Shown here: positions 1,435 to 61,928 of the stretch, in pieces
Numbering within the stretch: the stretch's first letter is position 1
How the letters are laid out: each line of letters opens with the position of its first letter
Source: Escherichia phage vB-EcoP-XT18
Length of the DNA: 64,000 nt
Sequence record: OR757434.1
Reading direction: 5' to 3' (one strand)
Program-made: the position numbers and the translations under genes
Notes under the pieces: model-generated
What the model was told of the DNA's origin: nothing
Seen by the model: only the letters and a program-made list of their open reading frames with translations
Database searches by the model: none

Positions 1435-2796
1435 ATGATTGTTATCCCGATTAACCAAATTGAAGATAAGGTTGCTCAACAACCCGATATCACTGTTGGT
1501 CGTCATTTCATTGAACAGTTGATTAACAACAACTTGGTTCCAGACGGTATCTGTCCCATCATTACTGGTGGGGCTGTTCGTGATGCTGTTATTAATAATA
1601 CAGCTCCGCACGACATTGATATCTTTATCGTCAGAGGGCAAACACCAAGAACACAAAACACTTTCACTTCAGTGGGCCGTTGGCAAGCTCTTGGGAGTGA
1701 ACTTGAAAGCAATGTGAAAGAGTGGCTTGAGTCACAAGATATTGAGTATTCATCTCTTCTTGCTGAAGCTACAGATGAGCCATACGCAGGGACTTCTCGA
1801 TTAACATTCACTGATATCATTGAATTTCAGTGGCATGGAACGCGAATCCAATTCATGTTTAACTATCCCACCTCTATCGAAGAGGTTCTAGATAATTTTC
1901 CTATGATGTGTCGTGGTGCTATGACTCTTGATAAGCTATTCATGACCATTCATGGATATTTGGCTATGACTTCTCCAATTCCAGTGGTTGTGACTGATCG
2001 AGAGATTAAATATGTCCACAAGAAGTGGCCTAATTCACAGGTGCTAAGGTTCCAAACCCCGGGAGTTGCTTTTCATTATATGGCACATGCTCGGCAACAA
2101 CCCATACCTCAGATGGTCAGGGATCTGGTTAATAACCAAGGTCAAGTATATCTTATTGGCGACACAGCAAGTCCTCAATATTGTGTTGACCAAGACATGA
2201 GTCGATTCTTTGGAATCCCTTATGAAGAAATTCAGTTAATGTCAAGTGTTAATGGATCTAGTCGGATTAGTGCGTATTGGTCTGAAGGGTTGACAAACCT
2301 GACAACTAACACAGGAGGAGATCTCCTTGGTCGGGAAGAAGAACCTAACCGACACAATGCAATTGAAGGGGTTTTTGTAGCCCCTGCAATGCGCCGAGCA
2401 CAAGAGTCACGAAATCTAAGCTCTACTCGTAGAACATCTTTTGAAGAAACTCTTGGTGTTACTAGCGATTCATTTGAGCGGTGGTTGTCTAGACGTTCTA
2501 ATGGTCAATCAAATGGTTTGACTGTTAGCCGTCACCAGTTCTCTGGTCAGAGTTTAGCTGTTGGTGATAGCAACGCACCTGTTATGGCTGTGTGGACCGA
2601 TGAAGGTGTGGCCCAAGATGTGGTAAGTAGTCTTGATGTCCCTTCTCATGGTGAATTAGCTGAGACCGTCAGCCGCAATCTCGCTGATCGGTTTGTTGCT
2701 AACAACCCTGAAGTATTAGAGCCTCAAACCCGTACAGTTCGGTTTGCCGATGAAGCAGGTCGTGGAATCTCTTTTGACATGGAAACAAACAACTAA
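1435..2796 (+). CDS. Pol-beta superfamily nucleotidyltransferase, CCA-adding enzyme / poly(A) polymerase-like head domain
   Basis: GGAVRD followed by HDIDIF matches the class II tRNA nucleotidyltransferase signature; C-terminal half is S/T/R-rich and looks disordered; start ATG overlaps the exo-domain stop. Confidence 0.55.
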   Translation: MIVIPINQIEDKVAQQPDITVGRHFIEQLINNNLVPDGICPIITGGAVRDAVINNTAPHDIDIFIVRGQTPRTQNTFTSVGRWQALGSELESNVKEWLESQDIEYSSLLAEATDEPYAGTSRLTFTDIIEFQWHGTRIQFMFNYPTSIEEVLDNFPMMCRGAMTLDKLFMTIHGYLAMTSPIPVVVTDREIKYVHKKWPNSQVLRFQTPGVAFHYMAHARQQPIPQMVRDLVNNQGQVYLIGDTASPQYCVDQDMSRFFGIPYEEIQLMSSVNGSSRISAYWSEGLTNLTTNTGGDLLGREEEPNRHNAIEGVFVAPAMRRAQESRNLSSTRRTSFEETLGVTSDSFERWLSRRSNGQSNGLTVSRHQFSGQSLAVGDSNAPVMAVWTDEGVAQDVVSSLDVPSHGELAETVSRNLADRFVANNPEVLEPQTRTVRFADEAGRGISFDMETNN

Positions 2797-2805
2797 GGAA
2801 TAAGA

Positions 2806-3339
2806 ATGAGTTTACTAGGAAGTGTTGAACTGCATGATGTAATTGACAATGGCTATCTGGATGCGGAGCATAAGTATGTTAACGCTGCTAGTGTGGATAT
2901 CCGTATTGGTGATACTATCCTTGTTGAAGAACAGGCTGATGGCATCGTTGATATTGATGCGAAAGAGAATCTTCAGTGGAAGGAAGTAAAAATCCCTGAA
3001 GAGGGCTTGGTTATCACTCCGGGTCAGTTCTTCTTGGCTCACTCTATGGAGGAGTTTAATCTTCCAGATAACATCTCAAGTCTGTTTGTTCTGCGTTCGT
3101 CTATGGCTCGTTGTGGTTTGAACCACCTTCACGCCGGTTGGGCAGATGCAGGATTTAATAGCAGTAAGCTGACATTTGAATTCCATAACGTAACCAAGCA
3201 CCACAGTTTACGAGTTCGTGCTGGTATGCGTGTTGGTCAGATGGTGATGTTTGAGCACTCTCATGCAGGGGAACATTCCTATGCAGTGAAGGGGCGTTAT
3301 AATAACTCTGAAGGTGTAGTTGCATCTAAAGGTGTGTAA
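2806..3339 (+). CDS. dcd: dCTP deaminase
   Basis: ASVDIRIGDT, RSSMARCGL and YNNSEGVVASKG align by eye with E. coli Dcd motifs. Confidence 0.8.
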   Translation: MSLLGSVELHDVIDNGYLDAEHKYVNAASVDIRIGDTILVEEQADGIVDIDAKENLQWKEVKIPEEGLVITPGQFFLAHSMEEFNLPDNISSLFVLRSSMARCGLNHLHAGWADAGFNSSKLTFEFHNVTKHHSLRVRAGMRVGQMVMFEHSHAGEHSYAVKGRYNNSEGVVASKGV

Positions 3340-3546
3340 ATGACTGAAGAAGAGTTCCAAGAACTGAAAGGTTTGACTACCGAGGTTCAATTAAAAGCTA
3401 TGACATTTGGTCGAGCATGTCATCAATTTGATATATGCGTCGAAAGCAGTAAAGAAGCTTGTAAGAGCTATATGGATAAGAAGCACCTTGAATGGGGTAA
3501 AGCCTCTAACGATCTTTATAACTATATGAAGGGTTTAGTAAAATGA
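3340..3546 (+). CDS. hypothetical protein
   Basis: ORF in operon context. Confidence 0.4.
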   Translation: MTEEEFQELKGLTTEVQLKAMTFGRACHQFDICVESSKEACKSYMDKKHLEWGKASNDLYNYMKGLVK

Positions 3547-8744: not shown

Positions 8745-8926
8745 AGTGCTCTAGGTGTGAAGGAACAAACCTTCATTTAAGTAACAAGGTTATCAGAGAG
8801 CTTGCCAAAGGCTCTCCAACCAAAGGGAAGAACAAACGATTTACTAACGTCAGGGTTTATACAGCAATCTGTAAAGACTGCTTAACTACTGAGTGTCATT
8901 ACGAAGAAATTGGAGAGCGTAAATGA
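8714..8926 (+). CDS. small Cys-rich protein
   Basis: CSRC...CKDC...ECH. Confidence 0.35.
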   Translation: MVSYRMDIVVKCSRCEGTNLHLSNKVIRELAKGSPTKGKNKRFTNVRVYTAICKDCLTTECHYEEIGERK

Positions 8927-9660
8927 GTCGTCGTCAATCACGGAAAGAATCACGGAAAGACCTTCGTCGGGAAGCACTTGTCACTCGTAAGGGTAAGCGC
9001 GAGTTTGAAGAGGTGGTTTTAGCAAAGCCTGTAGTCCCTCAGAACCAGTTCCAGTCTGAACTGCTCAATGCTATCAAGACTAAACAAGTTGTGTTCACAG
9101 ACGCTCCTGCGGGCTGCGGGAAGACCTTTGTAATCACTTCCACAGTTATTGATGCACTGAAGAGTGGTAAGATTCAGAAGATCATTCTGAGTCGCCCTTC
9201 TGTTGGCATGGGTAACTCACTTGGGTTGCTTCCGGGAGGAATGCGTGAGAAATTTGAACCATATCTGATGCCAATCATTGATGTTATTACTCAGAGATAT
9301 GGTAAGGGGTTCTATGAATGCCAGCTCGGTAATAGTAACATTGAGTTTGTACCTCTGGAGTATCTCCGTGGTCGTTCTTTCAATGATGCTATCGTTATCG
9401 TTGATGAGTTCCAGAACACCACTAAAGATGAAGCCTTCTCAATCATGACTCGATTGGGAGAAACCTCTCAGCTGTTCTGCATGGGTGATACAAACCAGCA
9501 TGATATGCGTGGTCGTGAGAGTGGTCTTACTTGGGCTACTAACTTTATTGATGAACATGATCTGTATGAGTTCGCTGAGATTGTAGACGGCGAATCAGAT
9601 GACATTGTTCGTTCTGGTTTCTGTAAAGCTATTGTTAAAGCAATGGAAAAGAAAGCTTAA
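8923..9660 (+). CDS. phoH: PhoH-like ATPase
   Basis: Walker A APAGCGKT, Walker B IVIVDEFQN. Confidence 0.8.
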   Translation: MSRRQSRKESRKDLRREALVTRKGKREFEEVVLAKPVVPQNQFQSELLNAIKTKQVVFTDAPAGCGKTFVITSTVIDALKSGKIQKIILSRPSVGMGNSLGLLPGGMREKFEPYLMPIIDVITQRYGKGFYECQLGNSNIEFVPLEYLRGRSFNDAIVIVDEFQNTTKDEAFSIMTRLGETSQLFCMGDTNQHDMRGRESGLTWATNFIDEHDLYEFAEIVDGESDDIVRSGFCKAIVKAMEKKA

Positions 9661-9671
9661 ACAGTAACTTA

Positions 9672-9680
9672 TAATGTATA
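9672..9680 (+). promoter_or_regulatory. TAATGTATA, putative phage-sigma-dependent promoter
   Basis: motif about 35 nt upstream of the 9717 ATG; same 9-mer recurs upstream of other genes on both strands. Confidence 0.45.
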
Positions 9681-9716
9681 CTCCTTAGTGTACACTGATA
9701 TATTAAGGAGTTTTAA

Positions 9717-10040
9717 ATGGCAGACCATGTAGGAAAGAGAGATTATGCACAAGAAAGACGTACCGCCATCGCAAGGGGTGAAACGGGAATTGGTAGCAAG
9801 AGCGGAGATGCTCAGCGCCACCGTGCACGTCGCATCGTTGAAAAGCGCGATGGAAAAGCTGCTGTCAGAGGTAAAGACGTTGGACACAAGCGAGCCATCA
9901 AGTCAGGAGGCTCTAATGCGTCAAGCAACTTACGTGTTGAAACAGTCAGCGGAAATCGTTCAGCTGGCGGCAAAAGTGGAGATCGAGCTGGGAAGGCAGC
10001 TGGCGCTGCTAAGCGAAAAGGAGCTTTAAGCTCCTCGTAA
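9717..10040 (+). CDS. basic Gly/Lys/Arg-rich protein, possibly nucleic-acid binding
   Basis: AAGGAG RBS 6 nt before the ATG; an alternative frame 9745-10029 is also open. Confidence 0.45.
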   Translation: MADHVGKRDYAQERRTAIARGETGIGSKSGDAQRHRARRIVEKRDGKAAVRGKDVGHKRAIKSGGSNASSNLRVETVSGNRSAGGKSGDRAGKAAGAAKRKGALSSS

Positions 10041-47356: not shown

Positions 47357-48898
47357 TTAGTAGCTCTGATTCCATCTGCTTACGTTTGCCTCATACAAAG
47401 AAGCGCTTCCGTAGCTAACATCATGCTTAGAGCGACCACGATGTGTAACAGAGCACGCTGAATAGCGCATTGCATCCATTAAGTCATCATGTTCTTTAAT
47501 AATCTTACCAACCTTACGGTGATATCTAGCTTTCTCTTCGAATAGCTTAGCGTTAGCGGCTGTGTTAAAGACTTTAAAGCGTCCACTCATCATTCTTTCT
47601 CGGATATCTGTGATTCCCGGTTCTACAAAGAAGTTCTTTTTACCATCCATTCCAATTTTGTTGTAGAAGGTCTCACTCTGTACGTTAACTCCTGCATTCT
47701 TATAGAATTGAGCAACAGATGAGCCACTACCTTTCTCAGTATTGTCCGCATCATGCGGTAGGATGACAGGAATCCACTGACCACGACCATTAATAGCTGG
47801 AGCATGATACACTGGAGTAAAGCCACCTTCTTTATATGAGTCGTAAACATAGATAGTATCCGTGTTTGCATCGTAAGCTGTCCAAACAGCAGCAGTTGGG
47901 TGATCAATACCAATATCAATTGCACAGACACGTTTCCACGTATCAGGAATTTCGAATGGTTCACATTTAATTGTGTCATCCGATACATCATATATCAAAC
48001 CACTTCCTAACAATGGCATACCTTTTGAACGCATCTCTAACTGCCACGCTGGAATACCTTCAGTCATATCTTTTATATCTTGGTCAGTGATGTGTCCACC
48101 TAGGTCTGCATGAGCATCCCACCAAGAAGCATTCTGGAAATACAGAGAACCTGTGTTCTCATCTCCTTCACCTTTCATAAATTTATCTACCAGTTCAGTT
48201 AAACCGTTCTCTGGTGTAGCTGTAATTGTAACTAGACCTTTAGTTGTGAGTGTACGTGTGACGCACTGTGCGAATATAGCCATAGACTCGTATGGATCTT
48301 CTTCGTCTAACCAAATGTAGTCAACTGTTGCACCCATCAATGTGTGTTCACCCTGTTGGGTTGAACGGAATTCTAATGTACTTAAACCGTCAAACTCTCC
48401 TCTCTCATTTTGATGTTTGATTTGTACGATTTGAAGTTTGTTACCATCTCGTTCTATCGTATCAATGACGATAGCATCACGAGGAATGACACCTGTCCCT
48501 AATAAATTTGTATCCTTTCCGATAGGTGTACCAAACAATTCCTTTTGCAATACTTTCCTTGTGGAATCCCCTGTAATACCAACTGCCCATGCTAAGATAG
48601 GTCTTTTAAATTTATATCCTGTCCACCAAGTTGGGTAGCGACCTGTGACATGACAAGCAAACTCGTATGCCTCGCTATAAGATTTACCAACACGGTTCGC
48701 TGCACACAAGAATCTAAAGCGATGCTTCAATCCTGCTGCATAAAATTTCTTTTGGAAGTCATACGCCTTGAAAGACAAAATCTTATTATACTTCCTCCAT
48801 TGGTCACGCTCTTTCAACATATTCAATAGTGCTTTCTTTTCGTCTACACTAAGGTTGTTACCAGTTAGAGCTTCATAAATTTGTTTATCTAATGACAT
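47357..48898 (-). CDS. terminase large subunit
   Basis: Walker A-like AANRVGKS; size and position upstream of the portal. Confidence 0.75.
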   Translation of the reverse strand: MSLDKQIYEALTGNNLSVDEKKALLNMLKERDQWRKYNKILSFKAYDFQKKFYAAGLKHRFRFLCAANRVGKSYSEAYEFACHVTGRYPTWWTGYKFKRPILAWAVGITGDSTRKVLQKELFGTPIGKDTNLLGTGVIPRDAIVIDTIERDGNKLQIVQIKHQNERGEFDGLSTLEFRSTQQGEHTLMGATVDYIWLDEEDPYESMAIFAQCVTRTLTTKGLVTITATPENGLTELVDKFMKGEGDENTGSLYFQNASWWDAHADLGGHITDQDIKDMTEGIPAWQLEMRSKGMPLLGSGLIYDVSDDTIKCEPFEIPDTWKRVCAIDIGIDHPTAAVWTAYDANTDTIYVYDSYKEGGFTPVYHAPAINGRGQWIPVILPHDADNTEKGSGSSVAQFYKNAGVNVQSETFYNKIGMDGKKNFFVEPGITDIRERMMSGRFKVFNTAANAKLFEEKARYHRKVGKIIKEHDDLMDAMRYSACSVTHRGRSKHDVSYGSASLYEANVSRWNQSY

Positions 48899-50622: not shown

Positions 50623-51009
50623 AGTCATACTTGATACATCTTGCTATAGAGAAGCAGATGAATAAACAGAAGACTATTACTAACCAAAAGATTATTTCCA
50701 TTAAGACCTATCCACCCACGTACTGAATCTCAACTTACCACATTCCTTACACTTCCATGTTGATAGGTAGAGACCGTGTATTCTTTCATCCCCGTAAGCT
50801 TTACGAAGAAGGTAGTAATTGTGCTTACACTTCATCCGTCTAAATACTTTAATTAGATTCATTAAGTTCTCTCTTAAGCTTATATATAACAGTTCAAAAT
50901 TCTGATTTGACCGAGTGGGGCTAGGCCCTCTGCGGCGAATTGTTAAAAAGGGGGAGTCCTCAAATAAAAAATGGTTATTGGCAATGCCTTTACACCTTCT
51001 TCCACGTTC

Positions 51010-53159: not shown

Positions 53160-53534
53160 TTGATTACTATGTGGTTTATTAAATTCGTCGTTAAAACGGT
53201 TGTAGGCTTTTTTCTGGTTGTTCTTCTGTTGGGTGTCCTGCTATCAGCTATGGGTAGCGTTAAGGCTGCAACATTTTCCCCTGCTACGGTTGACGGCTTG
53301 CAATGTACCTACCTTGTAGAAAACTATTCGACTGGTAAAAAGTCACCTAAGGTTATTATTTTACATGTAAATGATTTCGAGCATGTACAATCATACGCTA
53401 AGACTATTCAGCTAGTGAATGAAACCACTGGCAAACAAATCACGGTCGATCACTTGATGCGCTCGTCGTTGACGCTCTTTGACGAGTCTATGAATGAAGT
53501 AGAATCCGGTAACGGTCAGTGTGTAAATCCTTAA
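53160..53534 (+). CDS. membrane-anchored or secreted protein
   Basis: N-terminal hydrophobic segment. Confidence 0.4.
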   Translation: MITMWFIKFVVKTVVGFFLVVLLLGVLLSAMGSVKAATFSPATVDGLQCTYLVENYSTGKKSPKVIILHVNDFEHVQSYAKTIQLVNETTGKQITVDHLMRSSLTLFDESMNEVESGNGQCVNP

Positions 53535-53613: not shown

Positions 53614-53937
53614 ATGAAGAAGTTAATCGTTGGCTTGGCTGTTGGTTTGTCTTTGTTTGCTGGTAGTGCTAGCGCATACATGAAATGCGGAAGCATTGGA
53701 GTGGTCACAGCCTCTAATGGTGCTAAAAATCTCACCGCTTTAGGTAAGACTTGGTCCGCTACTGAGGTTATCACTTTAGAAAATGGCTTAAAGGCTGTAA
53801 TCTATGATAACCGGAAAGATGGTTCAATTCTTCGGGTTGTTCCTACGGAAGATGGGAAAACGGTTGCCATTATCTATTATCGAGATGCGGAATCTAATCT
53901 TAATGGTAATCCTGTGCTTTCCGGTATGTGCCGATAG
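53614..53937 (+). CDS. secreted protein with signal peptide
   Basis: MKKLIVGLAVGLSLFAGSASA signal peptide. Confidence 0.45.
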   Translation: MKKLIVGLAVGLSLFAGSASAYMKCGSIGVVTASNGAKNLTALGKTWSATEVITLENGLKAVIYDNRKDGSILRVVPTEDGKTVAIIYYRDAESNLNGNPVLSGMCR

Positions 53938-53965
53938 TCTATCTGATGCTCTAAATCCTTCCTAT

Positions 53966-53990
53966 AAGCCTCCTAGTGAGGCTTTTCTCA
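53966..53990 (+). terminator. rho-independent terminator
   Basis: AAGCCUC-CUAGU-GAGGCUU then UUCUCAUUU. Confidence 0.55.
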
Positions 53991-54149
53991 TTTCTAAGGT
54001 GATTGTATTCCTTACCCTCCTTTAGCTCATTGTGATGCGTCTGAGAGCGTCAAATAGTGCTTTACAAGCCTGTTTTAGTATGTTATTCGCGTGCGCGTTC
54101 CTTTACCTACTCCTCTACGAAAAAGTTTAAAATAATTTGCTTTGCCCTA

Positions 54150-54177
54150 TTGCATTACTCACTGGTTGGCGTATACT
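54150..54177 (+). promoter_or_regulatory. sigma70-type early promoter (TTGCAT-16-TATACT)
   Basis: -35 at 54150-54155, -10 at 54172-54177; boxA-like element about 50 nt downstream. Confidence 0.45.
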
Positions 54178-54224
54178 TCAATTCATCGGGTACGATGAAA
54201 AACATACAAGGCAAGAAATTGCCC

Positions 54225-54234
54225 CGCTCTTTAA
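54225..54234 (+). promoter_or_regulatory. boxA-like element CGCTCTTTAA
   Basis: identical to the core of rrn and lambdoid nut boxA. Confidence 0.5.
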
Positions 54235-54273
54235 AAATCAGGCTAGAAAGTGAAAAAATACTTGAAAAAGTAT

Positions 54274-54301
54274 TTGACAACTGGAAAGCCTAACCTATAA
54301 T
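54274..54301 (+). promoter_or_regulatory. strong sigma70-type early promoter (TTGACA-16-TATAAT)
   Basis: consensus -35 at 54274-54279 and -10 at 54296-54301; A/T-rich upstream region. Confidence 0.7.
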
Positions 54302-54333
54302 GAGCATAAGTCAGCGATGACGTGAAACATCCC

Positions 54334-54343
54334 CGCTCTTTAA
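54334..54343 (+). promoter_or_regulatory. boxA-like element CGCTCTTTAA
   Basis: about 35 nt downstream of the promoter. Confidence 0.5.
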
Positions 54344-54420
54344 AAACTTATCATCTTGCCCTTTCGCATAGATTCAAGCGAGATAAGGGAAAAGAATAAA
54401 AGAAGATGATAAAAAAGAGG

Positions 54421-54449
54421 TTGCAAACGTGGTTAAGGTAGTTCATACT
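54421..54449 (+). promoter_or_regulatory. sigma70-type promoter candidate (TTGCAA-17-CATACT)
   Basis: -35 and -10 hexamers with 17-nt spacer. Confidence 0.35.
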
Positions 54450-54610
54450 AACCACAAGTTAACAAAACAACGTTAACTAGTTCCCAAGTCAACGTATCGC
54501 GGGAAAGGTGGCACATAGTGCAGCGAGTAGTTCGGGAGTAGGCGCCCCGTTAATGAATAAGTAAGCCTTTAATGATGCAGTGATTAGCAGACACTATAAA
54601 AGGCTAAAAA

Positions 54611-54620
54611 CGCTCTTTAA
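54611..54620 (+). promoter_or_regulatory. boxA-like element CGCTCTTTAA (full context ACGCTCTTTAACAA)
   Basis: closest of the four copies to the rrn boxA sequence. Confidence 0.55.
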
Positions 54621-54726
54621 CAATATGGATCATAAGTTTAAGCCTTATCGCTTAATCTTCAATCAAATAAAGCTGGTTGATATATCCTCCCAATAGCGGG
54701 AACGACGAAAAAGATTAAAAAAGCGG

Positions 54727-54755
54727 TTGACAGCAAAAACATCATGGTCCATAAT
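54727..54755 (+). promoter_or_regulatory. strong sigma70-type early promoter (TTGACA-17-CATAAT)
   Basis: -35 at 54727-54732 and -10 at 54750-54755; A-rich upstream region. Confidence 0.65.
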
Positions 54756-54847
54756 GAGCGTACTCACTAGGCAAATCACCGCTTCAGTGAAAAGCGAAAC
54801 AACGGCTTACAGTTGCGTAGCGTGAGAAAGCACGCTGACAGATTTAC

Positions 54848-54857
54848 CGCTCTTTAA
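54848..54857 (+). promoter_or_regulatory. boxA-like element CGCTCTTTAA
   Basis: about 95 nt downstream of the promoter. Confidence 0.5.
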
Positions 54858-55530
54858 TAATTTAAACGTCCCCATATATCGGTTAAATATGCTGGAAGAT
54901 AATAACCATCGGAAAGCATACCAGATAAAACGGCGTAAAACTCCCTAAACCATCAGGGTAAACAGTTTTACAATCCCTTAACTGGAAACGTCACCACTGA
55001 TAAGCGGATTCATTGAGTACACGCAACGGTTTAAGCTAATCGCCCACGGTTAAGGGTAGCGGCGGCCATCGCTAACACGGTGCTACAGTGAAATAAGTTA
55101 ATCAGGGCAGACAAGTCCGACGAAATAACGCTCAATTGAGAGCGGCGGGGGATGGTTAAAGGGTAGCAAATTGCTATTTAACAATAAGGTTTAGTGTGAA
55201 CGTTTACGATGCGAACGGCTTGAGATTCGTCTTATGATGAAAGTACATAGTCGGTTTATGTAGTAAACTCGCCGAAAGATATAAAACGCCGGAATAATAG
55301 GCGGTTAGTGACTCTTTCGCAATAGTATCCCATAGTGGGCGATGACTAGCGAAAGAGAGCTGATATAAAAGGATAGGCGGGAGCGAAAGCAAAGTAAACG
55401 ATATTGCCGACGGTTACATCAATGTAACTAATTAGAGTCGGACGCACTGCCTTATTGTGGTGATTGATCATCGCTATCAGGTCGGCTTGGTTTATAGCGA
55501 CTAATTAAAGATACCAGTTGAAACACCACG

Positions 55531-55578
55531 GATAAGGGGGCGGCAAGGTTAACTCCTGACAAGACCGCCCCCCTTATC
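55531..55578 (+). other. long GC-rich hairpin (13-14 bp stem, 21-nt loop) in the early leader, possible RNA processing site
   Basis: GATAAGGGGGCGG ... CCGCCCCCCTTATC inverted repeat. Confidence 0.4.
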
Positions 55579-55679
55579 AATAATTACTTAACAATGAGTG
55601 ATTATCGATAAGTCAATGGCGACTTAAAAAGCTCATAGAGAGCGGGGCATAGTGCCCTTACAATTGAAAGGTGAATATC

Positions 55680-56579
55680 ATGGCTAAAATTTTTAATCTG
55701 GTTAAAGAATCTGGTTTTAACGCACTGGCTAACAACATTCGCAGCAATAACGCGGCGATCAAACAAGATGTTTCTAATTTTCTGTTAGGGCACTTGCAGC
55801 ACTTCCGTAGCAATGGTAAAAAGCTGGACGTATTGCAGGCGGCGGTCGATTTTCTGTTAACCGAACGTTTCCGCGATATGGATGTGATTGCCACTGCAAT
55901 TACTTTCCTGACTCCGATCAAGTTTAACACCGATGCGGCAAATGGGCGTAAGAAGTGGATTAATCTGGAAGGTGAAGCGAAAGCGAAAGAAGATGCGAAA
56001 GAAGCGCAAATTAAGGCCAAAATGGAACAAAACCGAGCTCGCTGGTCAAATGCTTTCGAAAATTTTGCCCTCGGTCGTGAAATTGAAGTCGATAATCCTA
56101 ACTTTTACAAAGGTTGCAATGACAACGTGGCGGCCCACCTTCAAATCCCGGCGAAAAATAAGGAAGATTTTAACCAAGATATTTACGCCTTAGTTGAACG
56201 CTTGAATGCAATCCGTATTGAAGCCAAATTGCTGGCTGATGAGCGCAACGGCGCTACCAGTGATAATACTATTGCCTTGAGTGAAGAAGTGGGGAAAGTT
56301 AAAAAGTCCTTTGATTCACTCATCAAGAAAGTCACGGCTTCAACGGTAGCGATCTCTGACGACTATCTGATGAACGCATCAAGCAAGGAGCTGGAATCAC
56401 TTGATTCATATGCCGATGAAATGGAATCAACCATCGCAAAAATGCAGGAAAAATTGGATAATCTGCGCGGTCGTATCTCTTCAACAGTTGCAATCCGTAC
56501 CGAACAAGCTGCGAAAGAAGAAGAGGAAGAAGTATTGCGTAAAGCGGCTGAGATTATGGCGGCACGTCAGGCGGCATAA
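55680..56579 (+). CDS. first early protein, helical, unknown function
   Basis: ATG at 55680 with AAAGG RBS; E. coli-like codon usage; terminator follows. Confidence 0.5.
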   Translation: MAKIFNLVKESGFNALANNIRSNNAAIKQDVSNFLLGHLQHFRSNGKKLDVLQAAVDFLLTERFRDMDVIATAITFLTPIKFNTDAANGRKKWINLEGEAKAKEDAKEAQIKAKMEQNRARWSNAFENFALGREIEVDNPNFYKGCNDNVAAHLQIPAKNKEDFNQDIYALVERLNAIRIEAKLLADERNGATSDNTIALSEEVGKVKKSFDSLIKKVTASTVAISDDYLMNASSKELESLDSYADEMESTIAKMQEKLDNLRGRISSTVAIRTEQAAKEEEEEVLRKAAEIMAARQAA

Positions 56580-56601
56580 GTAAGACAATCTAAATAAACA
56601 T

Positions 56602-56636
56602 AAGGCGCTATCTTAACGGGTAGCGCCTTTTCTTTT
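56602..56636 (+). terminator. rho-independent terminator
   Basis: 9-bp stem AAGGCGCUA/UAGCGCCUU then UUCUUUUAU. Confidence 0.6.
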
Positions 56637-56681
56637 ATCAGTGCATTGATTCAGTGCATTAATCAAAGAATCTAATCAAAG

Positions 56682-56909
56682 GTGATGATCATGTTAATTA
56701 CGCATACCACGATTTATAGGAATCTTGTCAACGGTCAACATTACCGCCTATCTAAAAAGTATGGCGTTGAATGTAAATGTGTTATTACCGGTGAATGGTA
56801 TCCGTCGCCAATGAAGATTGAAACGTTGGAACGTGACGCTGTTAGTTATGTTATCACGCAAGAAACAACGTTAGGCCGTATCTTAAGAAAGCTGGGATTA
56901 AGAAAATGA
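56682..56909 (+). CDS. hypothetical early protein
   Basis: ORF. Confidence 0.4.
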   Translation: MMIMLITHTTIYRNLVNGQHYRLSKKYGVECKCVITGEWYPSPMKIETLERDAVSYVITQETTLGRILRKLGLRK

Positions 56910-61535: not shown

Positions 61536-61844
61536 GTGAAACAAAAGCATTTTATCATCTCAACCTTACTACTAATGACAACCATTGGTATCATCTCTGT
61601 TAATAGTGCAGAGATTGGGGTTAAGTATCAGAGTGTTCAGCAATGCACTCTTAAAGAGCATAGCTTAACTGGTATCAAAGAATCTCATGGTATGGTAAGA
61701 GATGGGCTTCTGTTTGTAGAAACAACTTCTGGTAATCGTGTCATGGCTACTGATGGCAAAGAAACAAAGTATGCCTACTTCCCTGATACAACAGGCTACT
61801 ACACTTTTGAAGAGAAGGATTGTAAGAAGTCTTTCTCTTTATAA
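61536..61844 (+). CDS. secreted or membrane-anchored protein
   Basis: N-terminal hydrophobic signal-like segment. Confidence 0.45.
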   Translation: MKQKHFIISTLLLMTTIGIISVNSAEIGVKYQSVQQCTLKEHSLTGIKESHGMVRDGLLFVETTSGNRVMATDGKETKYAYFPDTTGYYTFEEKDCKKSFSL

Positions 61845-61853
61845 ATAAATCAA

Positions 61854-61928
61854 GTCCCTATAGTTAAAAGGATATAACAGATTTCTTCTAAAAATCCATT
61901 CTAGGTTCGAGTCCTAGTGGGGACGCCA
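61854..61928 (+). tRNA. tRNA-Arg (anticodon UCU) with encoded CCA
   Basis: hand-folded cloverleaf: 7-bp acceptor stem with one G-U, D arm GTTA/TAAC, anticodon stem GATTT/AAATC with loop CTTCTAA, T arm CTAGG-TTCGAGT-CCTAG, discriminator G. Confidence 0.8.

Follow-up and report, generated by a model that had tools for sequence, protein, structure and literature searches.

The gene-free spacer upstream of gp124

The 64,000-nucleotide (nt) stretch of DNA analysed here, hereafter the window, comes from Escherichia phage vB-EcoP-XT18 (OR757434.1), a phiEco32-like podophage of the subfamily Gordonclarkvirinae, and the subject of this text is the spacer of about 1.6 kilobases (kb) that ends at 55,679, immediately before the homologue of phiEco32 gp124. 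The original prediction had read this spacer as an early locus free of open reading frames (ORFs), in which sigma70-type promoters are each followed by a boxA-like element, and had allowed for a long leader or non-coding RNA as its product. What chiefly marks the locus is the RNA and not the promoters: judging from sequence comparison, the ~830 nt from the last boxA to the first gene, at 55680, are no empty spacer but encode an RNA that is conserved and highly structured. The signals that surround it are the following.

53966..53984, + strand: terminator-like hairpin with a T-run, which closes the upstream early gene block and is annotated equivalently in SU10, SU7 and 4E8
54150..54177, + strand: P1, TTGCAT-16-TATACT, a weak sigma70-type promoter read from the sequence; TATACT and its context recur before the first boxA in relatives
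54226..54236, + strand: boxA 1 (GCTCTTTAAAA), with the hairpin GGCAAGAAATTGCC abutting its 5' side
54274..54301, + strand: P2, TTGACA-16-TATAAT (12/12), with an A-rich tract upstream; conserved in relatives
54335..54345, + strand: boxA 2 (GCTCTTTAAAA), from the consensus match and the relatives
54421..54449, + strand: P3, TTGCAA-17-CATACT, weak, read from the sequence
54612..54622, + strand: boxA 3 (GCTCTTTAACA), with 14/16 identity to the extended boxA of E. coli rrnB
54727..54755, + strand: P4, TTGACA-17-CATAAT (11/12), with the A-tract AAAAAGATTAAAAAAGCGG upstream
54849..54859, + strand: boxA 4 (GCTCTTTAATA), ending just 5' of the closing helix of RNA domain I
55666..56579, + strand: Shine-Dalgarno region (GAAAGGTGAAT) and first gene, the gp124 homologue of 299 amino acids
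56602..56629, + strand: strong intrinsic terminator with a stem of 12 base pairs (bp) and a T-run, which ends the RNA-gp124 unit

The conserved unit consists of boxA, RNA, gp124 and terminator, and no + strand terminator-like hairpin lies between those at 53966-53984 and 56602-56629. A G+C-rich hairpin with a U-run is found within ~25 nt of the gp124 homologue in the window and in eight of nine distant loci, with differing stem sequences; straight after the terminator, and before the ribosome-binding site of the next gene, a second hairpin (CAGTGCATTGATTCAGTGCATTAATC...) is predicted at 56630-56681. The gp124 protein has no Pfam or Protein Data Bank (PDB) sequence match and no fold match outside its own family, and its AlphaFold model, of moderate confidence (predicted local distance difference test score 72.5), is helical with a long C-terminal helix.

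Across 53900-55700 the window shows 100% identity to Escherichia phage vB-EcoP-XT32 and 76-96% identity to 96 further records, every one of which is a phiEco32-like member of Gordonclarkvirinae; blastn matched the locus in all 97 deposited genomes of the group, with at least 80% query cover in 79 of them. The structured RNA is present in each of the 26 sequences of our Gordonclarkvirinae panel, which includes one IMG/VR metagenomic contig (L006), as well as in seven metagenome contigs and nine Logan contigs from two deeper uncultivated clades, and it stands upstream of a gp124 homologue in every case where the contig reaches that far. A protein search with gp124 led to uncultivated relatives at ~70% and 46-50% amino-acid identity, which have no close match among deposited phage genomes; nine distant loci were analysed on 6-11 kb of fetched sequence, one of them (L058) with no more than 85 nt of sequence upstream of its boxA. 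Pattern scans of IMG/VR and metagenomes returned the same subfamily only, plus chance matches of 17-20-mers, and were set aside. In phiEco32 the equivalent is the unannotated gp125-gp124 spacer, ~2.8-4.8 kb from the right-hand genome end, and in SU10, as in phiEco32, the spacer carries three sigma70 promoters (PMC4281155). Neither boxA, Nus factors nor a non-coding RNA (ncRNA) is mentioned at this locus in PMC8948821, PMC4281155, PMC4331800 or PMC11990801, although the primary phiEco32 papers may comment on it. Annotation pipelines leave the 0.8-kb stretch blank or fill it with spurious ORFs.

Conservation and folding of the RNA

Nucleotide conservation of 54860-55679 equals that of the adjacent gene and is clearly higher in divergent genera (0.865 vs 0.744 in SU7 and 0.885 vs 0.750 in 101114BS3, RNA vs gene). 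Substitutions in this non-coding stretch show no 3-nt periodicity (0.39/0.42/0.45), as against 0.29/0.19/0.83 in the coding sequence. The absence of ORFs claimed by the original prediction was borne out, since no + strand ORF of at least 30 amino acids occurs from 54826 to the first gene and none in the non-coding stretch is common to all relatives.

The evidence for RNA structure is very strong. RNAalifold predicted 250 pairs on the 26 panel sequences, with 99.1% of cells paired in an explicit count, and 73 of these pairs carry compensatory double changes, compared with 4-9 once the partners have been shifted by 1-3 columns; none of 500 shuffles reached the observed values. In a cross-group set of 13 sequences over all three groups, with 45-90% pairwise identity, 89 pairs were 92.8% paired and 61 of them had double changes (15-28 in slid controls), the covariation score being 0.527 vs at most 0.10 in controls. 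Compensatory changes span up to 290 nt, and the large excess of G.U over A.C cells (707 against 23) indicates that the folded molecule is the + strand RNA, and not the other strand or the DNA. A structure and covariation analysis of 54860-55670 had been put forward with the original prediction as a check, and its outcome, base pairs kept by compensatory changes beyond controls, strongly supports the long leader or ncRNA that had been considered there. A search of the whole window against Rfam at gathering thresholds gave no match except one tRNA, and cmscan of 53900-56700 with E up to 10 gave only matches below threshold (12.5-19 bits), to unrelated small families; the scan, with Rfam 15, covered GOLLD, ROOL, OLE, group I/II introns, RNase P, tmRNA, 6S and others. 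The RNA has no similarity to host RNAs or to any E. coli sequence.

The predicted fold comprises a leader, three domains and a 3' series of hairpins.

54780-54796 and 54800-54815, + strand: two small leader hairpins, from RNAalifold and covariation; CAAC/GTTG becomes CCAC/GTGG in PAS59 and distant loci
54819..54836, + strand: boxB-like hairpin AGCGUG-AGAAAG-CACGCU, ending 12 nt before boxA 4
54861..55160, + strand: domain I, with the closing helix 54861-54873 / 55148-55160 and helices 6-20
55039..55047 (5', AUCGCCCAC) and 55335..55343 (3', GUGGGCGAU), + strand: inter-domain helix of 9 bp, from covariation
55181..55458, + strand: domain II, with the closing helix ACAAUAAGG (55181-55189) / CCUUAUUGU (55450-55458) and helices 22-32
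55257..55267, + strand: conserved unpaired motif UAUGUAGUAAA, from the cross-group alignment
55457..55529, + strand: domain III, a composite stem GUGGUG (55457-55462) / CACCAC (55524-55529) that encloses further covarying helices
55537-55571, 55573-55612 and 55631-55658, + strand: 3' hairpin series, helices 36-41 of the close-group model, reaching up to the ribosome-binding site

The leader consists of ~90 nt with three hairpins, after which comes boxA 4. The third, boxB-like hairpin (helix 4) is similar in sequence to the rrnB boxB GCUGAGAAAAAGC and has three of its seven pairs covarying in the close group; all 12 representatives have a hairpin before their last boxA, with a different stem in each, a loop that is usually purine-rich, and ~3-12 nt between the end of the stem and the motif. 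MAFFT and RNAalifold gave no leader structure across all groups, group C being misaligned, and per-sequence folds were used instead. In the consensus fold boxA 4 is unpaired except for one predicted, non-conserved pairing with the ribosome-binding site. A translational switch formed by AUUUACC, 5' of boxA 4, and the gp124 Shine-Dalgarno (helix 5) was rejected, as it shows no covariation and is absent in distant groups.

The closing helix of domain I starts 1 nt after the 11-nt match of boxA 4, which is followed by AAUUUAAACGUCCCC, one strand of the helix, and it is found, with differing sequences, in 11 of 12 representatives. That of domain II is invariant in the close group and covaries in distant ones (ACAATTTGG/CCAAATTGT, ATAAATTGG/CCAATTTAT). 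In the helix joining the two domains, 99.1% paired over 39 sequences, six positions are paired in all 39 and three in 38, and a C-G pair has changed to U-A in PAS59 and, separately, in L057. The TGTAGT of the unpaired motif is invariant in all three groups (most members have TATGTAGT and L048 has TTTGTAGT), and AGCGAA and CUAAUUAGAG are other conserved unpaired islands. Towards the 3' end, five of the seven pairs of the hairpin core GGGGCGG/CCGCCCC (55537-55543 with 55565-55571) covary, and so do 14 of the 17 pairs of the hairpin 55573-55589/55596-55612. The long hairpin originally proposed at 55531-55578 is therefore real in its G+C core, while its outer arm (GGATAA/TTATC) probably belongs to the neighbouring hairpin at 55573-55612. 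Four hairpins of the first-pass model that are invariant in the close group (19, 30, 33 and 35) were displaced by long-range helices after distant sequences had been added, 33 and 35 being superseded by the domain III stem. A 14-nt complementarity between the boxA 1 region and 55636-55649 was also set aside, since the local hairpins at 55631-55658 covary instead.

Promoters, boxA motifs and neighbouring genes

The two near-consensus promoters at 54274 (12/12) and 54727 (11/12) and the two weaker ones were found as the original prediction had placed them, and all its elements lie at the positions it gave or within a base or two. The TTGACA of P4 is invariant in 26 of 26 relatives, and transcription from it would start near 54762; the A-tracts upstream of promoters, such as that before P4, could be read as UP elements. 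Many relatives have, instead of P3, a TTGACA promoter 40-50 nt upstream of the boxA that corresponds to boxA 3, and a majority of the distant relatives have such a promoter ~100 nt upstream of their last boxA.

The motif CGCTCTTTAA occurs exactly four times in the window, at 54225, 54334, 54611 and 54848, in all cases on the + strand; with one mismatch allowed there are 11 matches vs 4.27 expected, a count reached by none of 100 shuffles. All four boxA are exact to the 11-nt sequence GYTCTTTAANA, the functional gamma-proteobacterial boxA consensus of Baniulyte et al. (PMC5725501), which has 6 matches in the window vs 0.53 expected. The remaining two are isolated, at 47491 (+ strand) and 61649 (- strand); the latter (61649-61659, GCTCTTTAAGA), ~200 nt from a + strand tRNA-Arg(TCT) gene at 61854-61928, may be a chance match, given the 0.53 expected per window. 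The four boxA of the locus span ~630 nt, each starting 34-163 nt past the end of the -10 hexamer of its promoter, and the extended boxA 4 (GCTCTTTAATAATTTA) has 15/16 identity to that of rrnB (GCTCTTTAACAATTTA).

Each of the 26 relatives has 3-6 exact boxA, every one downstream of a TTGACA-type promoter, and CGCTCTTTAA matches equivalent to boxA 3 and boxA 4 occur in all of them, at -1057 to -1074 and -826 to -837, respectively, from the gp124 start codon. What lies upstream of a boxA is often unrelated between these phages; as the 11-mer stays exact while its flanks are swapped, the conserved thing is the motif itself and not its neighbourhood. Eight of the nine distant loci have two or three consensus boxA, on the + strand only and nowhere else in the sequence fetched, with the last at -870 to -936 from the start codon, and the truncated L058 shows one; the motif is thus retained in relatives whose RNA identity is only 45-62% and whose flanking gene is only 46-70% identical. 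By the criteria available from sequence, namely consensus match, strand specificity, invariance and an upstream boxB-like hairpin, the four motifs appear to be what the original prediction took them for, host Nus-factor sites behind each promoter.

Among otherwise close phages the promoter-boxA modules vary in number from 3 to 6 and whole modules have been exchanged for unrelated sequence (54000-54760, L001-L027), which indicates frequent recombination or duplication of promoter-plus-boxA units. A long hairpin after boxA 2 (54346-54418, TTATCATCTT...AAGATGATAA), conserved behind a boxA in most relatives, may be a terminator of antisense transcription, as a T-run would follow it on the - strand. 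An internal 'fifth boxA', TGCTATTTAACAATAAGG (55171-55188), invariant in the close group, was discarded: it departs from the consensus at position 4, one of those mutated in the inactive C4T/T6C double mutant (PMC5725501), and its 3' half is the strand of the domain II closing helix that covaries in distant relatives.

Some neighbouring features deserve mention. The gp125 homologue (53160-53534), an early protein of 124 amino acids, carries the label 'terminase' in PHROGs (phrog_13168) as well as in numerous deposited genomes, which looks like a propagated mis-annotation of a small early-region protein, and the label 'DNA polymerase B region' on its neighbour of ~85 amino acids is similarly suspect. 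Between the gp125 homologue and the spacer lies an ORF of 107 amino acids (53614-53937) with a signal-peptide- or lipoprotein-like N-terminus (MKKLIVGLAVGLSLFAGSASA...) and no Pfam or PHROG match; among the fetched loci, which do not include XT32, it is annotated only in XT73, most relatives running from gp125 to the terminator. In four uncultivated relatives (L048, L050, L052 and L053, ~1950-3500) a further ~1.3-1.5 kb without called genes lies upstream of the promoter-boxA modules, with 68.6% identity over 1266 aligned columns (L053 vs L052) and no shared ORF; only ~80-150 nt of it matches the window (~50813-50962), and it may represent a terminal region or another non-coding element.

Interpretation and likeness to known systems

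We consider it likely that the locus is a cassette in the style of the ribosomal RNA (rRNA) operons, dependent on Nus factors and resistant to Rho, which expresses a new large structured RNA. Host sigma70 RNA polymerase would initiate at two to six tandem early promoters, and the nascent RNA would show a hairpin and then a consensus boxA within ~30-160 nt of each start. At this boxA NusB/NusE(S10) would bind and, with the help of NusA, NusG and SuhB, would render the polymerase Rho-resistant and RNA-chaperoning, as for rRNA. The modified polymerase would then cross the ~830 nt of untranslated RNA, helping its three domains, closing helices and inter-domain helix to fold, and would go on through gp124 to stop at the strong intrinsic terminator. 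From the sequence we infer early firing of the promoters, binding of the Nus factors, Rho as the threat and the RNA as a functional product, which would act on the gp124 message in cis or, once processed, in trans. Untranslated RNA is terminated by Rho. NusB/NusE are described in PMC6614801 and PMC5725501 as binding boxA and, with NusA, NusG and SuhB, making polymerase Rho-resistant and aiding rRNA folding, and long untranslated CRISPR transcripts are shielded from Rho by boxA (PMC7665894); from these precedents the phage boxA would let polymerase complete, and perhaps fold, ~900 nt. The target of anti-termination is likely to be Rho acting on this untranslated RNA, and not read-through into all early genes. 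As in rrn, boxA stands immediately 5' of the first long-range helix.

Several observations qualify this interpretation or weigh against it. Promoter-like sites in the region are not in excess (8 vs 10.4 by chance), and the case for the promoters rests on two near-perfect matches and their conservation. There is no GU-rich rrn-type boxC, nor any UGUGUGGG-like element, behind the boxA motifs. The presence of one boxA per promoter is left unexplained, since a single boxA downstream of all promoters would suffice, and strong RNA structure should itself lower the susceptibility to Rho. The related Salmonella phage 7-11 (L029) has ~1 kb of non-coding leader before its first early gene (8865-9917), with repeated AACGG-type motifs and no boxA; it was set aside, with only a weak blastn match of 75 nt. 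The structure model, moreover, erred where the close group is invariant, and as hairpins of that kind proved wrong in the first pass, its details are provisional and may change again.

Among other explanations, a processive anti-termination like that of lambda, in which the boxA-modified polymerase reads through the gp124 and later terminators into the early genes and the 830 nt are a leader, seems to us rather unlikely. It would suit a strong terminator placed directly after gp124, with early genes continuing in the same orientation, and phiEco32-like phages need some anti-termination according to the authors of the 7-11 study (PMC8948821). Nonetheless, it accounts neither for the stronger selection on the leader relative to the coding sequence nor for the upkeep of ~250 pairs by compensatory changes; no lambda-style boxB lies behind the boxA motifs, and no N-like factor is evident, the neighbouring early proteins having no informative family matches (no search was aimed at N homology). 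Factor-independent rrn-type boxA complexes reportedly work poorly at intrinsic terminators (Albrechtsen and colleagues, 1990), and this, together with the conservation of the terminator and the promoter annotated just beyond it in SU7, makes read-through the less well supported role. The two roles are compatible and not mutually exclusive. Of the originally suggested termination-resistant early transcripts, the boxA and leader architecture thus appears supported, whereas the emphasis on read-through finds less support in the sequence than protection from Rho. A sponge, in which boxA copies on abundant early transcripts titrate NusB/NusE/SuhB off host rrn and so cause host shut-off, the RNA body being secondary, is very unlikely: the 3-6 boxA per phage, each behind its own promoter, and the change in copy number by gain or loss of modules would agree with it, but the last two boxA hold fixed positions relative to the RNA body and boxA 4 abuts the domain I closing helix in every lineage, which argues for a role in cis, and phiEco32 already has a sigma70 inhibitor, gp79 (PMC8948821).

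Strong promoters in tandem near one genome end, with a long, structured and untranslated transcript behind them, would also be expected of a replication origin, where the transcript forms an R-loop that primes phage DNA, like ColE1 RNA II or the promoter-dependent origins of T7 and T4. We regard this as highly improbable. The RNA leads directly to the ribosome-binding site of a conserved gene, and a terminator closes the unit; the locus has neither an AT-rich unwinding element nor a skew switch of its own; and a molecule with an inter-domain helix and unpaired motifs that are conserved looks like a folded RNA and not like a DNA hybrid. GC-skew was discarded as origin evidence, because it merely follows the direction of transcription. 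Small protein genes that were overlooked can hardly account for the locus, nor can an element that acts purely as DNA, such as a cruciform or a set of binding sites. Many tiny ORFs have been annotated by some depositors (e.g. in 101114BS3) and a - strand ORF of 41 amino acids recurs in most close relatives, but codon periodicity is lacking and no ORF is kept in all members, the compensatory changes reach across as much as 290 nt, and the G.U to A.C ratio excludes structures of the other strand and of double-stranded DNA.

As the RNA would be produced first and in large amounts, it might, at a guess, serve the takeover of the host or the evasion of its defences, perhaps jointly with gp124. Tentatively, and with more doubt than conviction, the RNA may be a new class of large functional RNA, mass-produced in the first minutes of infection by means of copied host rRNA transcription signals. 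It could then act as a ribozyme, as the scaffold of a ribonucleoprotein that includes gp124, as an 'ornate' particle that assembles itself in the manner of ROOL or GOLLD, or as a decoy that would disarm a host defence or RNA-handling enzyme. An RNA, not a protein, would on this view be the first effector of host takeover, in phages noted for their resistance to the defence systems tested on them (PMC11990801).

Both boxA-dependent anti-termination and large 'ornate' phage-associated RNAs (GOLLD, ROOL; PMC12286853) are already known. Our search found no description of a virulent phage with multi-copy, full-consensus rrn-type boxA driving a ~0.83-kb three-domain RNA. Should the proposed cassette prove correct, this would be, to our knowledge, the first known virulent phage to use a complete rrn-type boxA system without an adaptor like lambda N. 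Large, intricately folded bacterial and phage RNAs without an assigned function are rare and mostly occur in organisms that are hard to work with, while the present one resides in E. coli phages that are abundant and easy to grow, a number of them plating on K-12 derivatives (BASEL collection), and the genetics of its expression signals (boxA, Nus factors, Rho) are well developed. The finding would broaden a rule now taking shape, by which bacterial transcripts that are long and untranslated depend on boxA to escape Rho, and it would supply a first step, concrete and testable, for the early programme of the phiEco32-like therapeutic phages, which is poorly understood.

The closest likeness is to the E. 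coli rrn leader. In both, strong sigma70 promoters stand in tandem and have A-rich tracts upstream of them, the nascent RNA carries first a hairpin and then boxA, and boxA lies just 5' of the long-range helices of a large untranslated structured RNA. In the rrnB leader of MG1655 the boxB hairpin GCCGCUGAGAAAAAGCGAAGCGGC comes first and then UGCUCUUUAACAAUUUA; in the phage the order is AGCGUGAGAAAGCACGCU, 12 nt and then CGCUCUUUAAUAAUUUA, the latter 15/16 identical over the extended boxA, and the hairpin loop is similar to that of boxB. The differences are that the phage element belongs to a virulent phage, has one boxA per promoter (3-6 copies) and lacks the GU-rich boxC, that 12 nt (~3-12 nt across the family) separate hairpin and boxA vs ~2 nt in rrn, and that the product is not rRNA, has no similarity to E. 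coli sequence and is fused to a protein-coding gene. The boxA of CRISPR arrays and of the suhB 5' untranslated region (PMC7665894; PMC5725501) have the same 11-nt consensus early in a long transcript that is un- or poorly translated; those are single motifs of host loci that counteract Rho, whereas the phage boxA are multi-copy and precede a complex folded RNA.

Among phage systems, lambda nutL/nutR likewise place on an early transcript a boxA that recruits host NusB/NusE. The lambda boxA is degenerate (CGCUCUUA), is followed by boxB and needs the N protein. In contrast, the boxA described here has the full rrn consensus, and its conserved hairpin stands 5' and not 3'; a lambda-type nut site was therefore rejected, the hairpin being on the wrong side of boxA. 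GOLLD, ROOL and OLE (PMC12286853) are comparable as highly structured ncRNAs of ~600-800 nt with many covarying helices, GOLLD and ROOL being often phage-associated; the present RNA differs from them in having no sequence or structure match to them, in its coliphage hosts, in forming the 5' part of an mRNA and in its boxA modules. The put RNA of HK022 is also an RNA of a phage early transcript tied to termination resistance, but, with ~70 nt and two hairpins, it acts directly on polymerase and without Nus factors, whereas the RNA upstream of gp124 is ten times larger and has its boxA as a separate module.

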